DNA of 22,545 nt, from IMG/VR virus record IMGVR_UViG_2778261065_000029, positions 1 to 22,545 of that record; one strand, 5' to 3'. This stretch comes from a virus. Its lineage: Duplodnaviria > Heunggongvirae > Uroviricota > Caudoviricetes. The translations under genes were made by a program, and so were the position numbers. Shown one piece after another: positions 5,834 to 22,545 of the stretch (the first letter of the stretch is position 1; every line of letters starts with the position of its first letter). The notes under the pieces were generated by a model. The model was not told where the DNA came from. It ran no database searches and saw only the letters and a list, made by a program, of their open reading frames with translations.

Positions 5834-5991
5834 TTGCTAACCTCCTCCCATATCTCGTTATCGTTGGCCACATCGCGAGCTTCTTTGCTGACGAAAGCCC
5901 ACTTAATGCCTTCCTGTAAGGTGCGGAACTTCCAGCTCATGAATCCGCATGCAGTAACGCAGTACCAACCGTTGATGATTTTCCACTGCAT
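5830..5991 (-). CDS. Small ORF (53 aa), first gene of the leftward early operon; not in the supplied track (below size cutoff)
   Basis: ATG at 5991 preceded by GAGGTAAC; TGA stop overlaps the ATG of the next gene (ATGA). Trp/Cys-rich hydrophobic N-terminus (MQWKIINGWYCVTACGFMSW). Confidence 0.3.
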   Translation of the reverse strand: MQWKIINGWYCVTACGFMSWKFRTLQEGIKWAFVSKEARDVANDNEIWEEVSK

Positions 5992-6010
5992 AACTTGTTA
6001 CCTCGGTCTG

Positions 6011-6025
6011 TTACCGTTGAGGTAA
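6011..6025. promoter_or_regulatory. Operator-like palindrome TTACC-GTTGA-GGTAA (PL-like region)
   Basis: Perfect 5-bp inverted half-sites with a 5-bp spacer; one of nine copies of the same motif in intergenic regions. Confidence 0.5.
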
Positions 6026-6053
6026 TAATTATGCGTATCTGGTTTGATGTCAA
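6026..6053 (-). promoter_or_regulatory. Candidate PL-like promoter for the leftward early operon
   Basis: Minus-strand perfect -35 TTGACA (plus coords 6048-6053) with an A/T-rich TAATTAT -10-like element ~16-17 bp downstream. Flanked by operator copies at 6011-6025 and 6073-6087. By-eye prediction only. Confidence 0.3.
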
Positions 6054-6072
6054 TAGATATGAGTTAAAAAAA

Positions 6073-6087
6073 TTACCCGTTAGGTAA
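6073..6087. promoter_or_regulatory. Operator-like palindrome TTACC-CGTTA-GGTAA
   Basis: Second motif copy, upstream of the candidate PL -35 element. Confidence 0.5.
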
Positions 6088-6100
6088 TCGAATAGGCAAT

Positions 6101-6123
6101 AAAAAAGCCGCCATAAGGCGGCT
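6101..6123 (-). terminator. Intrinsic terminator downstream of the repressor gene
   Basis: Minus-strand hairpin AGCCGCC-TTAT-GGCGGCT followed by a U6 tract, about 20 nt after the repressor stop codon. Confidence 0.6.
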
Positions 6124-6144
6124 TACTTACTGAAAAATATGATT

Positions 6145-6729
6145 TTATTGTTTGTTTTTTTCGTTCTGGTTGATGACAAATTCAATGTAACTTTCGATCT
6201 TTGCCTTCTCTGTTTCAGGTAACAATGCGTAGCGCGAGCGGTCATAGTTGATAGTTGCAGGGTCATGCGGATGAATCAGTAGTTCATATCCGTGACGCCC
6301 GAATGCAGATGCAACATTCTCCAGGGTGGAAATGGAAACGCTGACCTCATTGTTTAACAGGCGGCTGATTGTCACCTGGGCGACGCCGGATGCGCGGTGA
6401 AGTTTTCCCTGTGTTGAAAGGTCGCGGCTTTCGCTCATCCAGCGTTCCAGGTTGTGAGCCGCCAGCTGACCAATGTCGCTTGGGCCGACAGGCTGAAAAC
6501 CTTCCTGAGAAAGCGAGCGATCGATATCAAGCCAGTTACGGGGTTTATTGGCGGCAGCTTCAATTTTTCGCGCAACCTGGTCGCCGATAACCTTCTTGCC
6601 AAGAGCCCAGCGGTTTACCAGATTTGCCTGAGTTCCAAGTTTTTCTGCCATCCGCGTCTGAACACCATTGAATTCACGGTCGATCAAGTCGTTGAGATTT
6701 TGCCTGCGGACGTCCTGGATACTTTTCAT
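6145..6729 (-). CDS. CI-like immunity repressor candidate with two HTH motifs and no LexA/S24-type peptidase domain
   Basis: 194-aa ORF divergent from a Cro-like gene across an operator-rich region. HTH-like segments QTRMAEKLGTQANLVNRW and RASGVAQVTISRLLNNEVSVSISTLENVA. No Ala-Gly cleavage site or Ser/Lys dyad context recognisable. Confidence 0.6.
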   Translation of the reverse strand: MKSIQDVRRQNLNDLIDREFNGVQTRMAEKLGTQANLVNRWALGKKVIGDQVARKIEAAANKPRNWLDIDRSLSQEGFQPVGPSDIGQLAAHNLERWMSESRDLSTQGKLHRASGVAQVTISRLLNNEVSVSISTLENVASAFGRHGYELLIHPHDPATINYDRSRYALLPETEKAKIESYIEFVINQNEKNKQ

Positions 6730-6784
6730 TTTCTGGAAAATCGCCTCATATATGAATCAGTAGATGATTCAATTTAAAGCAATA

Positions 6785-6799
6785 TTACCCAACAGGTAA
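6785..6799. promoter_or_regulatory. Operator-like palindrome TTACC-CAACA-GGTAA (immunity region, site A)
   Basis: Perfect half-sites in the repressor/cro intergenic region. Confidence 0.5.
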
Positions 6800-6801
6800 A
6801 T

Positions 6802-6816
6802 GCACCTCATAGGTAA
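6802..6816. promoter_or_regulatory. Degenerate operator copy gcACC-TCATA-GGTAA (immunity region, site B)
   Basis: One half-site mismatched; centre 17 bp from site A. Confidence 0.4.
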
Positions 6817-6822
6817 CTATCC

Positions 6823-6858
6823 TTGATTTTTGTTACCTTATGGGTGAATATTTATTAT
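6823..6858 (+). promoter_or_regulatory. Candidate PR-like promoter for the Cro-like gene
   Basis: -35-like TTGTTA (6830-6835) and -10-like TATTAT (6853-6858) with 17-bp spacing; alternative TTGATT/GAATAT pair. By-eye prediction only. Confidence 0.3.
6833..6847. promoter_or_regulatory. Degenerate operator copy TTACC-TTATG-GGTgA (immunity region, site C), overlapping the candidate PR spacer
   Basis: Lies between candidate -35 TTGTTA (6830-6835) and -10 TATTAT (6853-6858) elements. Confidence 0.4.
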
Positions 6859-6883
6859 CTGAAATAAATATCAGGCAATAGCT

Positions 6884-7114
6884 ATGAGCGATAACGGACA
6901 TTTCGATTTCAAAAAGCACTGGCTTGCACTTACTCCGGATGAGCGTGAAGCCTTCGCACAGGAAGCCGGAACGACGAGTCACTATATCCAGACTCACTTA
7001 ACAGGTAAGCGAAAAATGCCAGGTAAAGTATTGATGAATGGGCTTTTTAAAGCCTGTAAAACAAGACAATGGCTGCGCTCAAAAGCAGAACTGGCATACT
7101 TCTTCTACTCATGA
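6884..7114 (+). CDS. Cro-like / YdaS-type small HTH regulator
   Basis: 76-aa ORF divergent from the repressor. HTH-like segment EREAFAQEAGTTSHYIQTHLTGKRKMP resembles Cro/YdaS-type phage regulators (from memory). Confidence 0.5.
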   Translation: MSDNGHFDFKKHWLALTPDEREAFAQEAGTTSHYIQTHLTGKRKMPGKVLMNGLFKACKTRQWLRSKAELAYFFYS

Positions 7115-7136
7115 TATCCAGCTACAACCCTCTGTA

Positions 7137-7160
7137 GACCGCCATCCGGCGGTCTTTTCA
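7137..7160 (+). terminator. Intrinsic terminator after the Cro-like gene
   Basis: Hairpin GACCGCC-ATCC-GGCGGTC followed by TTTTCA. Confidence 0.5.
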
Positions 7161-7169
7161 TATCTATTC

Positions 7170-7184
7170 GTACCTTAAAGGTAA
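7170..7184. promoter_or_regulatory. Operator-like palindrome gTACC-TTAAA-GGTAA upstream of the replication genes
   Basis: Motif copy placed right after the Cro terminator and before the next operon. Confidence 0.45.
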
Positions 7185-7264
7185 TAAAAAACCAAATCTG
7201 GTTGATCTTTTTTTTGTGTCAGCACAAAATAACCGTAATCCCAATACTAATAACAGGGCTTACC

Positions 7265-7465
7265 ATGGAAATCATTACACGTATTGATGCCGCAAAGCGC
7301 GGACTTAAACGCTACTACACCGGAAAACCATGTAAGCACGGACATGACAGTGAACGCTGGGTTTACAACGGACACTGTGTTGAGTGCACCATGGAATCAA
7401 ACCGTCGCATTAGGGCAGAGATTAAGCAGATCATGATTAATTCCTCCCCACAACATTCAAGCTGA
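7265..7465 (+). CDS. Small Cys/His-containing protein (possible zinc-binding regulator), function unknown
   Basis: 66-aa ORF from an internal ATG (MEIITRIDAAKRG...) with the pattern CKHGH...CVEC. The track's longer N-terminal extension lacks support. Confidence 0.45.
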   Translation: MEIITRIDAAKRGLKRYYTGKPCKHGHDSERWVYNGHCVECTMESNRRIRAEIKQIMINSSPQHSS

Positions 7466-7480
7466 TAGCGGAGATTAATC

Positions 7481-8272
7481 ATGAGCAGACATGCAACAGA
7501 TTGGGCCTGGGAGACAGATCCAGGCAGCTCATCATTAAAGCTCATACTGCTCTCGATGGCTGACAGAGCCGATGAATATAACCTCTGCTACCCCAGCATA
7601 GAACGCCTCGTTAAAGACACTTGCCTGAATAAAAAAACCGTGCAGGCCGGGCTTATATCGCTCATGAAAATGGGGCTTATTTCAGATACCGGAGAGAGAA
7701 AGGGAGCGACGAAAAGAGTGCGGGTTTTCTCTCTTAATATAACCAAAAACGGGAACATTAAAGGCAACCGGGAAGGGAGTAATGAACCCGAAAACGGAAA
7801 TGTTACCGAAAACGGGAATATACCCAAAAACGGGATGTTGAATGATCCCAAAAACGGGATCCAGAACCAGTCATATAACCAGTCATTTAACCAAGAGAGG
7901 GGGAGCAGGACAAAAACCGGGGATTCTGTGCCTCATGACCCCGGCGCAAACAACGCCGTGATGAATAACTTTGTTCCTCCTGGTGGGCCAGGGCAATTAG
8001 GCAAATTTGTCATGCATGAACAATGGCAACCATCAGATGACTTTCTTCGGAAAAGCTCATTGCAGGGAATCTACCTGGACAGTCTGCCAACGGCACAGGA
8101 ACTTGCAGAGTTCAGAATTTACTGGATGGCTGAGGGTAAGGCATACCATCAGGCACAGTGGGAGCAGAAGCTGGCAAGGCGGCTGCAGATTAGCAGACAG
8201 AAGCAATCAACATTACCTGATAACAACGTTCCGCACTGGAACAGCCCTGAAGCGTGGGAGGATTTCTTGTGA
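7481..8272 (+). CDS. Replication initiator: N-terminal winged-HTH domain fused to a C-terminal DnaT-like domain
   Basis: GGAG ribosome-binding site 7 nt upstream. C-terminal KFVMHEQWQPSDDFL...EFRIYWMAEGKAYHQAQWEQKLARRLQ closely parallels the E. coli DnaT C-terminus as recalled (KFAMYPDWQPDADFI...[27 protein letters not shown]). Central linker is N/G/K-rich repeats. Confidence 0.75.
   Translation: MSRHATDWAWETDPGSSSLKLILLSMADRADEYNLCYPSIERLVKDTCLNKKTVQAGLISLMKMGLISDTGERKGATKRVRVFSLNITKNGNIKGNREGSNEPENGNVTENGNIPKNGMLNDPKNGIQNQSYNQSFNQERGSRTKTGDSVPHDPGANNAVMNNFVPPGGPGQLGKFVMHEQWQPSDDFLRKSSLQGIYLDSLPTAQELAEFRIYWMAEGKAYHQAQWEQKLARRLQISRQKQSTLPDNNVPHWNSPEAWEDFL
7743..7859. repeat. Five iteron-like direct repeats CC(G/C)AAAACGG(G)A inside the initiator gene (candidate origin)
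   Basis: Copies start at about 7743, 7788, 7806, 7823 and 7847, spaced 17-45 bp; they encode the KNGN peptide repeats. Confidence 0.5.
7865..7895. repeat. Tandem 12-bp repeats AACCAGTCAT(A/T)T (two good copies plus a degenerate third)
   Basis: AACCAGTCATAT AACCAGTCATTT AACCAAG... immediately following the iteron block. Confidence 0.45.
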
Positions 8273-9091: not shown

Positions 9092-9106
9092 TTACCTATA
9101 AGGTAA
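9092..9106. promoter_or_regulatory. Operator-like palindrome TTACC-TATAA-GGTAA
   Basis: Perfect copy upstream of the DUF1064 operon. Confidence 0.5.
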
Positions 9107-9153
9107 CAAAATATTCTAAACTCTATTGATTTAGTGTCTTATGTGGTTTTTAA

Positions 9154-9168
9154 TTACCTCAGAGGTAA
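9154..9168. promoter_or_regulatory. Operator-like palindrome TTACC-TCAGA-GGTAA overlapping the ribosome-binding site of the next gene
   Basis: Perfect copy ending 3 nt before ATG 9172; its GAGGT half doubles as the Shine-Dalgarno sequence. Confidence 0.5.
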
Positions 9169-9171
9169 ATC

Positions 9172-9519
9172 ATGAGAAAACAGATACAGGCTCTTGGTCG
9201 ACTCAAAACAGGCCAGATGAACAAAACAGAATCTGCGTATTGCCAGCACCTTGAGCAGCGTAAACGTGCAGGGGAAATCGCCTGGTATCGATTCGAGGGT
9301 ATCAAGCTGCGGTTAGCTGACAACACGTTCTATACGCCCGATTTCGCTGTGATGCTCGCCACCGGCGAGATGGAGCTGCACGAAGTGAAAGGGGGATTCT
9401 GGACCGATGACGCCAGAGTGAAAACCAAAGTCGCCGCAGATCAGTATCCGTTCCGAATCATCGGGGTAACGGTTAAGCCAAAGAAAGCAGGTGGTGGCTG
9501 GAACATCGAAGAGTTCTGA
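9172..9519 (+). CDS. DUF1064-like phage protein
   Basis: 115-aa ORF with the pattern YTPDF...HEVKG and a basic N-terminus, matching my recollection of DUF1064 family proteins. Confidence 0.55.
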   Translation: MRKQIQALGRLKTGQMNKTESAYCQHLEQRKRAGEIAWYRFEGIKLRLADNTFYTPDFAVMLATGEMELHEVKGGFWTDDARVKTKVAADQYPFRIIGVTVKPKKAGGGWNIEEF

Positions 9520-11760: not shown

Positions 11761-12091
11761 ATCCCCCGCAGAACGCAAAGCCGCGCAGCGCGCTCGGCAG
11801 TCCGCCGCCGGTGAGCGCAAAATTGAACTGGTGCTGGATAAGCAGGAGCAGGAAATGCTGGAGCGTAACTGTGCCGCCCGTCGCCCTGGTCGTGCGCCGT
11901 ATGAAATGAGCGAATACATCGCGTTACTGATCCGCCAGGATGATGCACGCGTGCGCGGGCGTATAAAATCGATCAGCAGAAAACGTTGCGGTAAGTGCGG
12001 CGAGAGAGTTCCAGTTAATTCATGCCCGTGTAATGGTGACTCGCAATGCTGGGTGACTAAAGGCTGGCATGAAACGAAATTAATAGTGTGA
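11753..12091 (+). CDS. Basic small protein with a C-terminal Cys cluster; candidate late-gene regulator
   Basis: GTG start at 11753 with GGAG 8 nt upstream. Arg/Lys-rich N-terminus (AERKAAQRARQ) and C-terminal CGKCGERVPVNSCPCNGDSQC. It is the last gene before the terminator and terminase module. Confidence 0.45.
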   Translation: MAKSPAERKAAQRARQSAAGERKIELVLDKQEQEMLERNCAARRPGRAPYEMSEYIALLIRQDDARVRGRIKSISRKRCGKCGERVPVNSCPCNGDSQCWVTKGWHETKLIV

Positions 12092-12099
12092 CATGTCAC
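12088..12099. repeat. Perfect 12-bp palindrome GTGACATGTCAC (copy 1), overlapping the stop codon of the preceding gene
   Basis: Exact palindrome; identical copy at 14353-14364 (shared 14-mer TGTGACATGTCACG). Confidence 0.6.
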
Positions 12100-12140
12100 G
12101 AGTAGATTATGCATGATGAATTTGATGGATTTTGAATACT

Positions 12141-12166
12141 GCCGCCAACTATGGCGGCTTTATTTT
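12141..12166 (+). terminator. Intrinsic terminator upstream of the terminase genes
   Basis: Hairpin GCCGCCA-ACTA-TGGCGGC followed by TTTATTTT. Confidence 0.55.
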
Positions 12167-12170
12167 GCAT

Positions 12171-12202
12171 GGTACTATTACCACAACGGTAACTATTACC
12201 AC
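12171..12202. repeat. Direct repeat GGTA(A)CTATTACCAC x2 immediately upstream of the terminase small-subunit start
   Basis: GGTACTATTACCAC (12171-12184) and GGTAACTATTACCAC (12188-12202). The second contains GGTAA-N3-TTACC, the operator half-sites in inverted order. Confidence 0.45.
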
Positions 12203-12209
12203 GGTGGTT

Positions 12210-12806
12210 ATGATGCCTGCTGAACCTAAAACCTATAAACGCAAATCAACGCAATTTAAGCCGCTCACAGCAATGCAGGAGGCTTATTGCCAGTCATACA
12301 TCAAAACGCCTGAAAACCAGACTCAGGCAGCGATTAACGCAGGATTCTCCCCAAACACAGCGGCAGTTAAAGCCAGTGTCATGATGCGCGATGAACGCAT
12401 TCAGAAACGGATTGCCGAGTTGATGGAGGAGCGCAACAAACGAATGCGCGTCAGTGCTGATTACGTTCTCATGCGCCTGGTGGAGATCGACCAGATGGAC
12501 GTGATCGACATCCTCAACGACGATGGGAGCCTTAAACCAATCCGTGAGTGGCCGAAAATCTGGCGCACTACGCTTAGTGGCTTTGATCTGTCGTCGACCA
12601 TCATGAACATGAACGAGGATTCGATAGAGACAATCCTCAAAAAAATTAAATGGCCTGACAAGGTGAAGAACCTTGAGCTGATTGGTAAGCATGTTGATGT
12701 CAACGCGTTCAAAGAACGTCTGGATGTTAATGTGAATGTGACAATTGCTGATCGCATAGCAGCAGCCAGGAAGCGACTCAAAGAACGTCAGGATGGTAAT
12801 CAGTGA
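12210..12806 (+). CDS. Terminase small subunit (Terminase_2-like)
   Basis: Pattern LTAMQEAYCQSYIKTPENQTQAAINAGFSPNTAAVKASVMMRDERIQKRI is typical of small terminase DNA-binding domains. Start placed at ATG 12210 (GGTGG upstream), not the track's 12132 extension. Confidence 0.7.
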   Translation: MMPAEPKTYKRKSTQFKPLTAMQEAYCQSYIKTPENQTQAAINAGFSPNTAAVKASVMMRDERIQKRIAELMEERNKRMRVSADYVLMRLVEIDQMDVIDILNDDGSLKPIREWPKIWRTTLSGFDLSSTIMNMNEDSIETILKKIKWPDKVKNLELIGKHVDVNAFKERLDVNVNVTIADRIAAARKRLKERQDGNQ

Positions 12807-14780: not shown

Positions 14781-14864
14781 GAACTGGAAGCAATGAGTTA
14801 TGCCTTCCGTGGCTGTACTGGTTTACAGCATGAAGCCATCGCAATGGCGTCCTGCTGTAAAAAG

Positions 14865-14943: not shown

Positions 14944-15020
14944 TGGCGTGGCATGCAGGATTCGAACCTGCGACCGACCGCTTAGAAGGCGGTTGCTCTG
15001 TCCAACTGAGCTAATGCCAC
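14944..15020 (-). tRNA. tRNA-Arg (anticodon UCU), argU-like, with encoded CCA
   Basis: Minus-strand 77-nt sequence GTGGCATTAGCTCAGTTGGACAGAGCAACCGCCTTCTAAGCGGTCGGTCGCAGGTTCGAATCCTGCATGCCACGCCA folds as a cloverleaf: 7-bp acceptor stem GTGGCAT/ATGCCAC, D-arm GCTC/GAGC, anticodon stem ACCGC/GCGGT with loop CUUCUAA, T-arm GCAGG-TTCGAAT-CCTGC. Near-identical to E. coli argU apart from stem substitutions (from memory). Confidence 0.85.
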
Positions 15021-15342: not shown

Positions 15343-15357
15343 TTACCTGAAAGGTAA
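15343..15357. promoter_or_regulatory. Operator-like palindrome TTACC-TGAAA-GGTAA upstream of the head-gene operon
   Basis: Perfect copy about 90 bp upstream of the first head-module ORF; GGTAATAATT is repeated again at 15415-15424. Confidence 0.45.
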
Positions 15358-15447
15358 TAATTCGTGCGTTAAATGTCAACTGTCTACGATAAATAAATCA
15401 TATGTGGTTAAATTGGTAATAATTTAATTGCGTACGGAGTCATTGAT

Positions 15448-20225: not shown

Positions 20226-20549
20226 ATGGAACTCGTAAACCTCAAAACCGGCACTGACAGCTACCAGGATGAGAGCGGAGAAACCAGAACTCGCGATGAA
20301 TACCCGTGGGGGCTGTGCATCACTCTTAATAACGACACATTGAATAAGCTGAAGGCACAACCTCAGGGCGTCGGAACAGAAGTGATGATAACTGCAAAGG
20401 CTGTTATTCGAGGCCTGTCTGCCAGAGAAACTGACGATGGTGTTAATCGCAGCGCCGATCTGCAGATCACTGATATGGCGATCGCTCCTGTTTCCAGGGA
20501 TGTAGAAAAATCAGCGGCTGAAACCCTGTACGGCAATGGGGGTGAGTAA
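20226..20549 (+). CDS. Hypothetical protein (107 aa)
   Basis: ATG 20226 with AGGAG 5 nt upstream; stop overlaps the next start (TAATG). Confidence 0.5.
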   Translation: MELVNLKTGTDSYQDESGETRTRDEYPWGLCITLNNDTLNKLKAQPQGVGTEVMITAKAVIRGLSARETDDGVNRSADLQITDMAIAPVSRDVEKSAAETLYGNGGE

Positions 20550-21153
20550 TGGCCTCTGTAGTAGAGATCTGCAATCGTGCGCTGTCCAATATTGGCAATA
20601 GCCGCAGCATTAACAGCCTGACGGAAGCCAGTAAGGAAGCGGGGGAATGTTCGCTGCACTTTGAGGCCTGCCGTGATGCTGTGCTTTCTGATTTTGACTG
20701 GAACTTTGCTACCAAACGCGTGGCGCTTGCAGATACGAGCAATCCACCGCCTGACTGGGAATATGCGTATCAGTACCCGTCAGATTGTCTGCGCATTACT
20801 GAAATTATGCTTCCTGGTGTACGCAATCCAACAGCAGCAATGCGCGTTCAGTACGAAGTTGGTGCAGACACCGACGGAACAGGAAAGTTGATCTACACAG
20901 ACCAGCCGCAGGCATGGCTCAAGTATGTCTCTCGCGTTTCAGATGTGAACATGTTTGATGCCATTTTTATGGAGGCGTTGGCCTGGCGTCTTGCGGCAGC
21001 CATTAACATGGCGCTGACTGGGAATGCGGATCTCGGTACATTTGCTCTCAATATGTACAATCGCGTGATTCTTAGTGCTGGCTCGCATAGCCAGAATGAA
21101 TCACAGGAACCACAGCCACCGGTTGACGAGTTTACCATTGCGAGGTTGTCCTG

Positions 21154-21154: not shown

Positions 21155-22545
<1,391 letters not shown>

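Follow-up and report, generated by a model that had tools for sequence, protein, structure and literature searches.

We analysed a stretch of 22,545 nucleotides of viral DNA (Duplodnaviria; Heunggongvirae; Uroviricota; Caudoviricetes; IMG/VR record IMGVR_UViG_2778261065_000029, positions 1 to 22,545), referred to here as the window, in which a repressor gene and a cro-like gene diverge from a 154-bp spacer. The repressor gene, rep (6145..6729, minus strand), is an open reading frame (ORF) of 194 amino acids encoding a repressor of the type found in phage SPC32H, and the cro-like gene (6884..7114, plus strand), the first gene of the rightward transcript, encodes a protein of 76 amino acids. Three palindromes of the form TTACC-N5-GGTAA are present in the spacer. 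An intrinsic terminator with an 8-pair stem (6 G-C) and a run of T residues ends the rep transcript (6105..6124, minus strand), and a second intrinsic terminator lies directly 3' of the cro-like gene (7136..7155, plus strand); both are annotated in phage phiV10. A divergent repressor/cro-like pair with three operators between the genes had been proposed from the sequence alone (the original prediction), and this description was borne out, with ORFs at 6145-6729 and 6884-7114 and sites beginning at 6785, 6802 and 6833.

The window represents a prophage of the phiV10-like type (Uetakevirus, epsilon15-like podovirus). Positions 5900-7300 were 98.8% identical to phiV10, and the whole window was 99.9% identical to the guaA-adjacent prophage of Escherichia coli MFDS1019527 (locus L004), with no base differing between positions 5900 and 7300. 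The surrounding DNA was 97-99% identical in phiV10, ZX5 and other E. coli Uetakevirus, and at least 80% of the window was found in 356 of 5426 complete E. coli genomes. Gene order in the window runs from the integrase start codon through the leftward early genes, the immunity region and the replication genes to terS/terL, the portal gene and the head genes.

Rep was 100% identical to gp40 of phiV10, to ORF21 of ZX5 and to the protein in a dozen other E. coli phage records, and the phiV10 record labels gp40 as 'putative transcriptional repressor, two helix-turn-helix motifs'. Overexpression of ZX5 ORF21 abolished free phage and reduced endolysin and holin transcripts by more than 99.9% (PMC9782041). 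When Rep was compared with proteins of solved structure using phmmer, residues 1-190 matched the 'Repressor' chain 5D50_A (E=4e-42) and residues 89-190 matched 5D4Z; the PDB titles describe these entries as the Rep-Ant complex and the Rep C-terminal fragment, respectively, 'from Salmonella-temperate phage'. Identity to the SPC32H rep gene was 41.8% over the full length (tblastn), and the alignment was collinear across all three parts of the protein, with 53% identity in the N-terminal domain, 34% in the middle domain and 43% in the C-terminal module. The pairwise alignment with SPC32H Rep was used to map an N-terminal helix-turn-helix (HTH) DNA-binding domain (residues ~1-72), a linker (~73-88), an HTH_3-like middle dimerisation domain (~89-152) and a C-terminal module for tetramerisation and binding of the antirepressor Ant (~153-194). 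By homology, architecture and operator layout, Rep belongs to the SPC32H Rep family.

Pfam detected HTH_3 in two stretches of Rep, the best covering residues 106-147 (E=1.2e-09), and the N-terminal HTH (~21-61) also matched YdaS_toxin. Residues N36, R40 and W41, which lie in the recognition helix of the N-terminal domain, were invariant. A structural re-analysis of SPC32H Rep describes its N-terminal domain as the DNA-binding domain, its middle domain (the middle dimerisation domain, MDD) as the part that dimerises, and its C-terminal 'CAD' as a p53-like strand-helix module serving both tetramerisation and antirepressor binding (PMC9986798). The original prediction had spoken of a two-HTH repressor. 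Two such stretches are indeed present, but the name is misleading, since the second corresponds by homology to the middle dimerisation domain; although an HTH in both fold and sequence, it appears to be a dimerisation domain and not a second reader of DNA.

It had also been predicted that Rep lacks a LexA/S24 autocleavage domain, and this held. Pfam gave no Peptidase_S24 match in Rep even at E<=1, and linker residues 63-90 (PRNWLDIDRSLSQEGFQPVGPSDIGQLA) contain neither an Ala-Gly nor a Cys-Gly dipeptide. The AlphaFold2 model of Rep, built with 32 homologues, was all-helical, with two confident HTH domains (predicted local distance difference test score, pLDDT, about 80-87), a disordered linker (63-82), a C-terminal helix and no beta-rich domain. 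A cryptic S24 fold was looked for among the Foldseek matches of this model and none was seen; the structural neighbours were all HTH proteins, and the 12 best PDB matches were all chains of 5D50 or 5D4Z, with template modelling (TM) scores of at most 0.80 when normalised to the 5D4Z chain. Superposition of the full chain on 5D50 was poor (TM 0.33-0.39, root-mean-square deviation 17 Å) because the domains are flexibly linked and the linker and C-terminus of the monomer model are of low confidence, and only the domain-level match to 5D50/5D4Z was used. Rep thus falls outside the autocleavable S24 class of LexA and lambda CI.

The three sites between the genes are referred to as the right operator (OR) sites. 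The site nearest rep (6785..6799, TTACCCAACAGGTAA), at about -70 from the rep start, has perfect palindromic half-sites. The middle site (6802..6816, GCACCTCATAGGTAA; about -87) reads GCACC...GGTAA, with two mismatches in the left half, and the site nearest the cro-like gene (6833..6847, TTACCTTATGGGTGA; about -118) reads TTACC...GGTGA, with one mismatch. Centre-to-centre spacing is 17 and 31 bp. We compared ten lineages, namely the window, SPC32H and eight loci of other genera with Rep identities of 46-75% (Superficieibacter, Erwinia, Pseudocitrobacter, Pseudescherichia, Kluyvera, Buttiauxella, Samsonia and one Pseudomonas assembly). The triple was present at about -70/-87/-118 from the rep start in nine of the ten, SPC32H included (Rep 42-100% identical), and at the Samsonia locus (L012) only an adjacent pair was found, at -76 and -93. 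The site nearest rep was perfect in all ten. The -118 site was kept in nine, in seven of which the deviating half-site is TCACC. For the middle site, phiV10-type lineages shared the degeneracy in one half-site, and a perfect copy was present in SPC32H, epsilon15 and L012. Phage epsilon15 also carries the triple. Conservation of this arrangement is far beyond chance. Allowing at most one mismatch, TTACC-N5-GGTAA occurred 10 times in the window against 0.34 expected, and none of 100 dinucleotide shuffles reached 10.

A consensus scan predicted a rightward promoter (PR-like) for the cro-like gene at 6830..6858 (plus strand; TTGTTA, 17-nt spacer, TATTAT), within which the OR site at 6833-6847 lies. 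The PR-like assignment was made by position, because promoter-like sites were overall no commoner than in shuffles. The symmetry of the sites, their overlap with this promoter, their position and conservation, and the binding of palindromes by SPC32H Rep together suggest that TTACC-N5-GGTAA is the sequence bound by Rep. On the rep side, TAATAT at 6785-6780 with a poor -35 element was considered by eye as a possible rep promoter and set aside as unsupported.

Two further perfect sites form a left operator (OL) pair beyond the end of rep. OL site 1 (6011..6025) overlaps the -10 end and start site of a predicted leftward promoter, PL (6053-6025, minus strand; TTGACA, 17-nt spacer, AATTAT; 10/12 matches), and its position at +704 from the rep start is conserved. 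OL site 2 (6073..6087) lies 62 bp from OL site 1, upstream of the -35 hexamer of PL. Eight of the ten lineages have this pair at the corresponding position and with the 62-bp spacing. The comparison with the logic of lambda OR1-3 that had been drawn earlier is only partly apt: three operators do lie between divergent genes, but their spacing is 17 and 31 bp, the repressor is by homology a tetramer with two DNA-binding pairs, and the operator also occurs at PL and at other promoters.

Candidate operators of the same form were found in front of several other transcription units. One follows the terminator of the cro-like gene (7170..7184, GTACCTTAAAGGTAA), upstream of a promoter-like pair, TTGATC/CAAAAT, from which the replication genes would be transcribed; an equivalent site is present in L005, L007, L008 and SPC32H (with two mismatches in the last). 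A pair follows replication gene P, with a perfect upstream member (9092..9106) and a downstream member (9154..9168) that abuts a -10-like hexamer and ends 3 nt before the ATG at 9172. This pair brackets a promoter-like TTGATT, 17-nt spacer, TTTAAT, and six of the ten lineages have retained it with its 62-bp spacing; epsilon15 carries a 'repressor' annotation at the equivalent site. An adjacent candidate pair upstream of terS (12178..12210; 12178-12192 perfect, 12196-12210 with one mismatch) lies 3' of a terminator and directly 5' of the ATG at 12213. The terS gene of SPC32H has a like arrangement, with sites at 12 and 30 and terS at 47, and positions 12-27 of epsilon15 are annotated 'repressor'. 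A perfect candidate site 5' of the head/portal operon (15343..15357) has equivalents in SPC32H (3175) and epsilon15 (2931-2947, annotated 'repressor'). Over all loci, 62 bp was the commonest distance between neighbouring sites (14 of 33), and adjacent pairs at 17-18 bp also occurred. The GenBank record of epsilon15 lists seven such sites as 'protein_bind: repressor', the OR triple not being among them. Outside the range of the window, SPC32H and epsilon15 carry further sites in three places: between ant and the tail-spike gene, in front of the lysis genes and in front of int.

We also observed that TATGTGGTT(T/A) recurs at window positions 9138-9150 and 15400-15410 and at 35112-35125 of L004, just 5' of -10 regions that contain GGTAA in several putative middle/late promoters. 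This stretch could be a phage-specific promoter element.

Pfam assigned no family to the 76-amino acid protein. It matched phrog_35, 'transcriptional repressor' (E=5.6e-13), and, weakly, 8BNY, 'Immunity repressor protein' (E=0.0069). Its AlphaFold2 model (pLDDT 86.9) has five helices in a lambda-repressor-like HTH fold, and its structural neighbours were YdaS-N and the DNA-binding domains of 434 repressor and P22 c2, at TM scores of 0.53-0.66 and non-significant E-values. Among 28 homologues with 61-86% overall identity, G29-T30-T31, Y34-I35 and T37-H38 were invariant within the HTH stretch EAGTTSHYIQTHLTG. Y34, I35, T37 and H38 are recognition-helix residues, and their invariance parallels that of the operator half-site. 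Fold and position are consistent with a Cro role for this protein, which by analogy may bind the operators of the repressor and lower repressor synthesis. A common origin of the Cro-like protein and the N-terminal domain of Rep was considered and not upheld; the HTH regions are in register, and the hhalign comparison was not significant (E=0.25, probability 0.25%).

In the absence of a self-cleaving repressor, an antirepressor, possibly under LexA control, or another signal from outside the window had been proposed as the probable inducer. Consistent with this, tblastn of the window with SPC32H Ant, L004 Ant and the phiV10 Bro-N protein gp23 gave nothing better than an E-value of about 1, and Pfam searches of the unassigned early ORFs of the window returned only AlpA, PerC and DUF1064. 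The expected position of ant is about 10 kb beyond the window end. In the 99.9%-identical L004 prophage, an 85-amino acid ORF (34733-34990) lies between the virion genes and the tail-fibre gene; it was 89% identical to SPC32H Ant and matched 5D50_E, 'Anti-repressor protein' (E=5e-48). Directly upstream is CTGTATGTTTATACAG, a canonical perfect LexA box. A LexA box was found immediately 5' of ant in L004, phiV10, SPC32H, epsilon15, Tyrion and ZX5, and one with a single mismatch in Klebsiella phage BUCT711. Of 36 phage records with a full-length Rep, 35 also encode Ant, which across these phages was far more conserved (62-99% identity) than Rep (42-100%). The Ant homologues of ZX5 (L016, 1501-1758) and phiV10 (L002, gp24, 20543-20800) are annotated 'hypothetical protein', and yet are 88-99% identical to the characterised Ant and lie behind a perfect LexA box. 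The small Ant had no Pfam family and weakly matched the C-terminal part of the PHROG antirepressor family phrog_1760 (5e-07).

A LexA-controlled gene inside the window was also considered and discarded. CTGT-N8-ACAG occurred twice (14813 and 19355), which is about the chance level (6 of 100 shuffles reached two), and the LexA-box-like CTGTACTGGTTTACAG (14813-14828), between a Gp49-family gene and a tRNA-Arg gene, is probably not functional, its CTGT half not being conserved in SPC32H. Downstream of ant in phiV10 (L002, 20481-20521), we noted a perfect hairpin with an 18-bp stem, GGAGTGCTTATATTTACC TTTGC GGTAAATATAAGCACTCC, whose tip carries the operator palindrome TTACCTTTGCGGTAA. This hairpin is absent from the prophage closest to the window.

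Taken together, the region very probably constitutes the lysis-lysogeny switch of a phiV10-like prophage located by guaA and induced along the route LexA to Ant to Rep. In this model, the N-terminal HTH of Rep would read the 15-bp palindromes TTACC-N5-GGTAA, the second, HTH_3-like domain would dimerise, and the C-terminal strand-helix module would join two dimers into the tetramer that is the DNA-binding form. Rep would occupy all three OR sites, where it covers the rightward promoter, as well as the 62-bp-spaced pair bracketing the leftward promoter, and probably like sites before the replication, terS and head transcription units. Lacking an S24 peptidase, Rep would not cleave itself, and the SOS response would act indirectly. 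LexA would repress ant (85 amino acids), a gene outside the window that is flanked by the virion genes and the tail-fibre gene; upon DNA damage, self-cleavage of LexA would allow Ant to be made, and Ant would bind the C-terminal parts of Rep and split the tetramer into dimers with poor affinity for DNA, whereupon the lytic promoters would fire and the Cro-like protein would be made.

Homology, domain architecture, the operator motif and its conservation, and ant with its LexA box in near-identical prophages were computed in this analysis. The mechanistic steps are modelled on SPC32H. SPC32H Rep reportedly stays uncleaved when the SOS response is induced, and phage SPC32N is said to differ from SPC32H by a point mutation in the LexA box 5' of ant. 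According to the secondary literature, SPC32H Rep is inactivated by tetrameric Ant made after LexA self-cleavage, and binds palindromic sites as a tetramer and weakly as a dimer, the paired DNA-binding domains coming from different dimers; reviews describe the SPC32H-type switch as one of antirepression. The repression mechanism has not been extensively characterised, according to the structural paper (PMC9986798).

Several points weigh against this interpretation. Identity between this Rep and SPC32H Rep is only 42%, and 34% in the dimerisation domain, and tetramerisation and sensitivity to Ant are extrapolated from SPC32H. That mechanism was in turn taken from secondary descriptions and PDB titles. 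We infer the binding of Rep to TTACC-N5-GGTAA from position, symmetry and conservation. There is no convincing sigma-70 promoter for rep, the consensus scan showing no leftward promoter in the spacer. Since ant lies outside the window, its presence in the source genome is presumed from a relative with 99.9% identity. Finally, the role of the small Ant in phiV10-type phages is transferred from SPC32H, and the study on ZX5 used a different, Bro-N-type 'anti-repressor'.

The last point bears on the identity of the inducer. Overexpression of ZX5 ORF4, a Bro-N/ANT-type antirepressor, lowered the prophage titre from 10^9 to 10^6 and repressor transcripts by 75% (PMC9782041), and a Bro-N-type gene lies downstream of ant, in like orientation, in phiV10, ZX5 and Tyrion. 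It could be that such a protein (phiV10 gp23, ZX5 ORF4), or some other signal, and not the small Ant, induces phiV10-type phages. However, the Bro-N gene varies, with the ZX5 and phiV10 versions 39% identical, is absent from SPC32H and from the prophage closest to the window, and had no homologue in the window by tblastn, whereas the small Ant accompanies Rep in all but one of the 36 records and is preceded by a LexA box in the six relatives inspected for one, BUCT711 having a box with one mismatch. We therefore consider this explanation improbable. Inactivation of Rep by RecA-stimulated self-cleavage through a cryptic peptidase is effectively refuted: nothing was found in its favour, and the lack of S24 at E<=1, the all-helical model, the HTH-only structural neighbours and the absence of Ala-Gly and Cys-Gly dipeptides from the linker all argue against it, as do the reviews, in so far as they class the SPC32H-type switch as antirepression.

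A different question is how Rep would read its sites. By Pfam score, residues 106-147 of the second domain are a genuine HTH_3 (E=1.2e-09), and adjacent operator pairs at 17-18 bp exist, as might be expected if a single chain were a two-headed binder with both HTH domains contacting DNA. Yet every site is a symmetric palindrome with identical half-sites, which fits two copies of one domain and not two different domains; the invariant N36, R40 and W41 lie in the N-terminal recognition helix; and the 92-198 fragment of SPC32H Rep is the part that oligomerises and binds Ant, its DNA-binding domain being N-terminal. A two-headed Rep is very hard to reconcile with these observations. More room is left for doubt about the TTACC-N5-GGTAA sites dispersed outside OR and OL, which might, instead of being operators of Rep, belong to promoters or to packaging signals or be bound by the Cro-like protein alone. 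GGTAAT often runs into A/T-rich, -10-like sequence, and the terS pair lies near the genome end chosen in phage records. Nevertheless, the dispersed sites have the same half-sites as OR and OL, lie between genes, keep their positions in phages whose Reps share 42% identity, and are listed as repressor sites in the epsilon15 record, making this explanation unlikely.

If the dispersed sites are Rep operators, as the LexA-Ant-Rep model takes to be probable, Rep could conceivably be a genome-wide clamp beyond a lambda-style repressor of two promoters, with one tetramer holding, by its two DNA-binding pairs, both sites of a 62-bp pair and enclosing the promoter, although we regard this as a tentative proposal that is somewhat more likely to fail than to hold. 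Sites are carried by most transcription units, namely the early left, cro, replication, post-replication, terS and head units and, outside the window, the ant/tail fibre, lysis and int units. The 62-bp pairs, at about six helical turns, often bracket -35 and -10 elements, and the operator half-site is invariant across Rep lineages down to 42% identity. With a half-site this constant, either the phages would be broadly homoimmune or the 5-bp spacer would encode immunity specificity. Dispersed sites are already annotated for epsilon15; as far as we found, the 62-bp bracket geometry and the question of specificity have not been described. The regular 62-bp brackets around promoters and the invariance of the half-site across diverged Reps, seen here at the sequence level, may go beyond what is published, and the brackets offer a testable geometry for the Rep tetramer on DNA.

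Additional features of the prophage were noted outside the immunity region. The final 56 bases of the window (22490-22545) are the left end of IS621, an insertion sequence of the IS110 family; a 58-nt query from this end has a median of 8 copies in the 1678 E. coli genomes that contain it, and lies 137 nt upstream of an annotated IS621 transposase. The bridge RNA of IS621 is encoded in its left end. The insertion, at 22489/22490, splits a phiV10p15-like virion gene, which in an uninterrupted relative reads ...GATCTGGCCT/ACTCATT across the junction. Because IS621 interrupts a virion gene, the prophage is probably defective, with its immunity region intact. A tRNA-Arg gene (anticodon TCT; 14944-15020, minus strand) is also found in SPC32H and the closest E. 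coli prophage. The DnaT-like replication gene (7481-8272) differs in length by 24 nt from that of the closest prophage, from about 7861, within an Asn/Gly-rich repeat region with NGN motifs. The terS start annotated in phiV10 corresponds to the TTG at 12132; with this start, an intrinsic terminator (12141-12158) and two operator-like sites would fall within the gene. The ATG at 12213 is the likely start, as terS of SPC32H and epsilon15 begins directly behind their sites. The palindrome GTGACATGTCAC (window 12088-12099, L004 34702-34713, L003 19634-19645) lies just 5' of an intrinsic terminator in two places, in front of terS and where the virion operon ends beside ant, and is kept between E. 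coli and Salmonella phages.

The original prediction was thus correct in its main lines, but the system it describes is already known from SPC32H (published in 2013 and 2016). As a discovery the locus carries little weight, given that an identical repressor has been annotated and overexpressed, and that the family has crystal structures and a published induction mechanism. Its value is practical. The LexA-Ant-Rep route would explain how DNA damage can act on phiV10-type prophages, which several hundred complete E. coli genomes carry, although their repressor is not cleavable. Moreover, the ZX5 study tested the Bro-N protein, while the conserved SPC32H-type Ant two genes upstream is still labelled hypothetical.

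The closest characterised relative is the Rep-Ant system of SPC32H (Kim & Ryu 2013 J Virol; Kim et al. 2016 PNAS; 5D50, 5D4Z), which shares a homologous Rep along its full length with the three-part architecture, the operator half-sites, the layout of a three-site OR plus OL, the genome positions of rep, the cro-like gene and ant, an Ant that is 88-89% identical, and the LexA box upstream of it. It differs in that its operator spacers are A/T-rich whereas those here contain G/C, its middle OR site is perfect whereas that of the window is degenerate, and its OL has three sites instead of two. The repressor is identical in phiV10 (gp40) and ZX5 (ORF21), with no difference of substance; the window prophage carries the extra IS621 in its virion gene.

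Like lambda, the region has three palindromic operators lying between a repressor gene and a divergent cro-type gene, another cluster of operators at the leftward promoter and a terminator after the repressor gene. Unlike the lambda repressor, Rep has no S24 domain, would not undergo RecA-driven cleavage and by homology would form a tetramer whose DNA-binding domains pair from different dimers. In addition, operator spacing is 17 and 31 bp compared to about 23-24 bp in lambda, the site closest to consensus is nearest rep and not nearest cro, a terminator follows the cro-like gene at once, and extra operators precede the replication, terS and head genes. The Gifsy prophages, Fels-2 and coliphage 186 (Tum) likewise combine an uncleavable repressor with a LexA-repressed antirepressor that passes on the SOS signal; the small Ant is unrelated to their antirepressors and, in the available descriptions, acts on the oligomerisation part of Rep without competing for the DNA-binding surface. 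Finally, the Rco/Rap system of the Bacillus plasmid pLS20 resembles this one in its N-terminal HTH, its C-terminal p53-like strand-helix tetramerisation module, DNA looping and a protein antagonist (PMC9986798), whereas Rep has an additional middle dimerisation domain, and the sequences of Rep and Rco are unrelated outside the DNA-binding domain.

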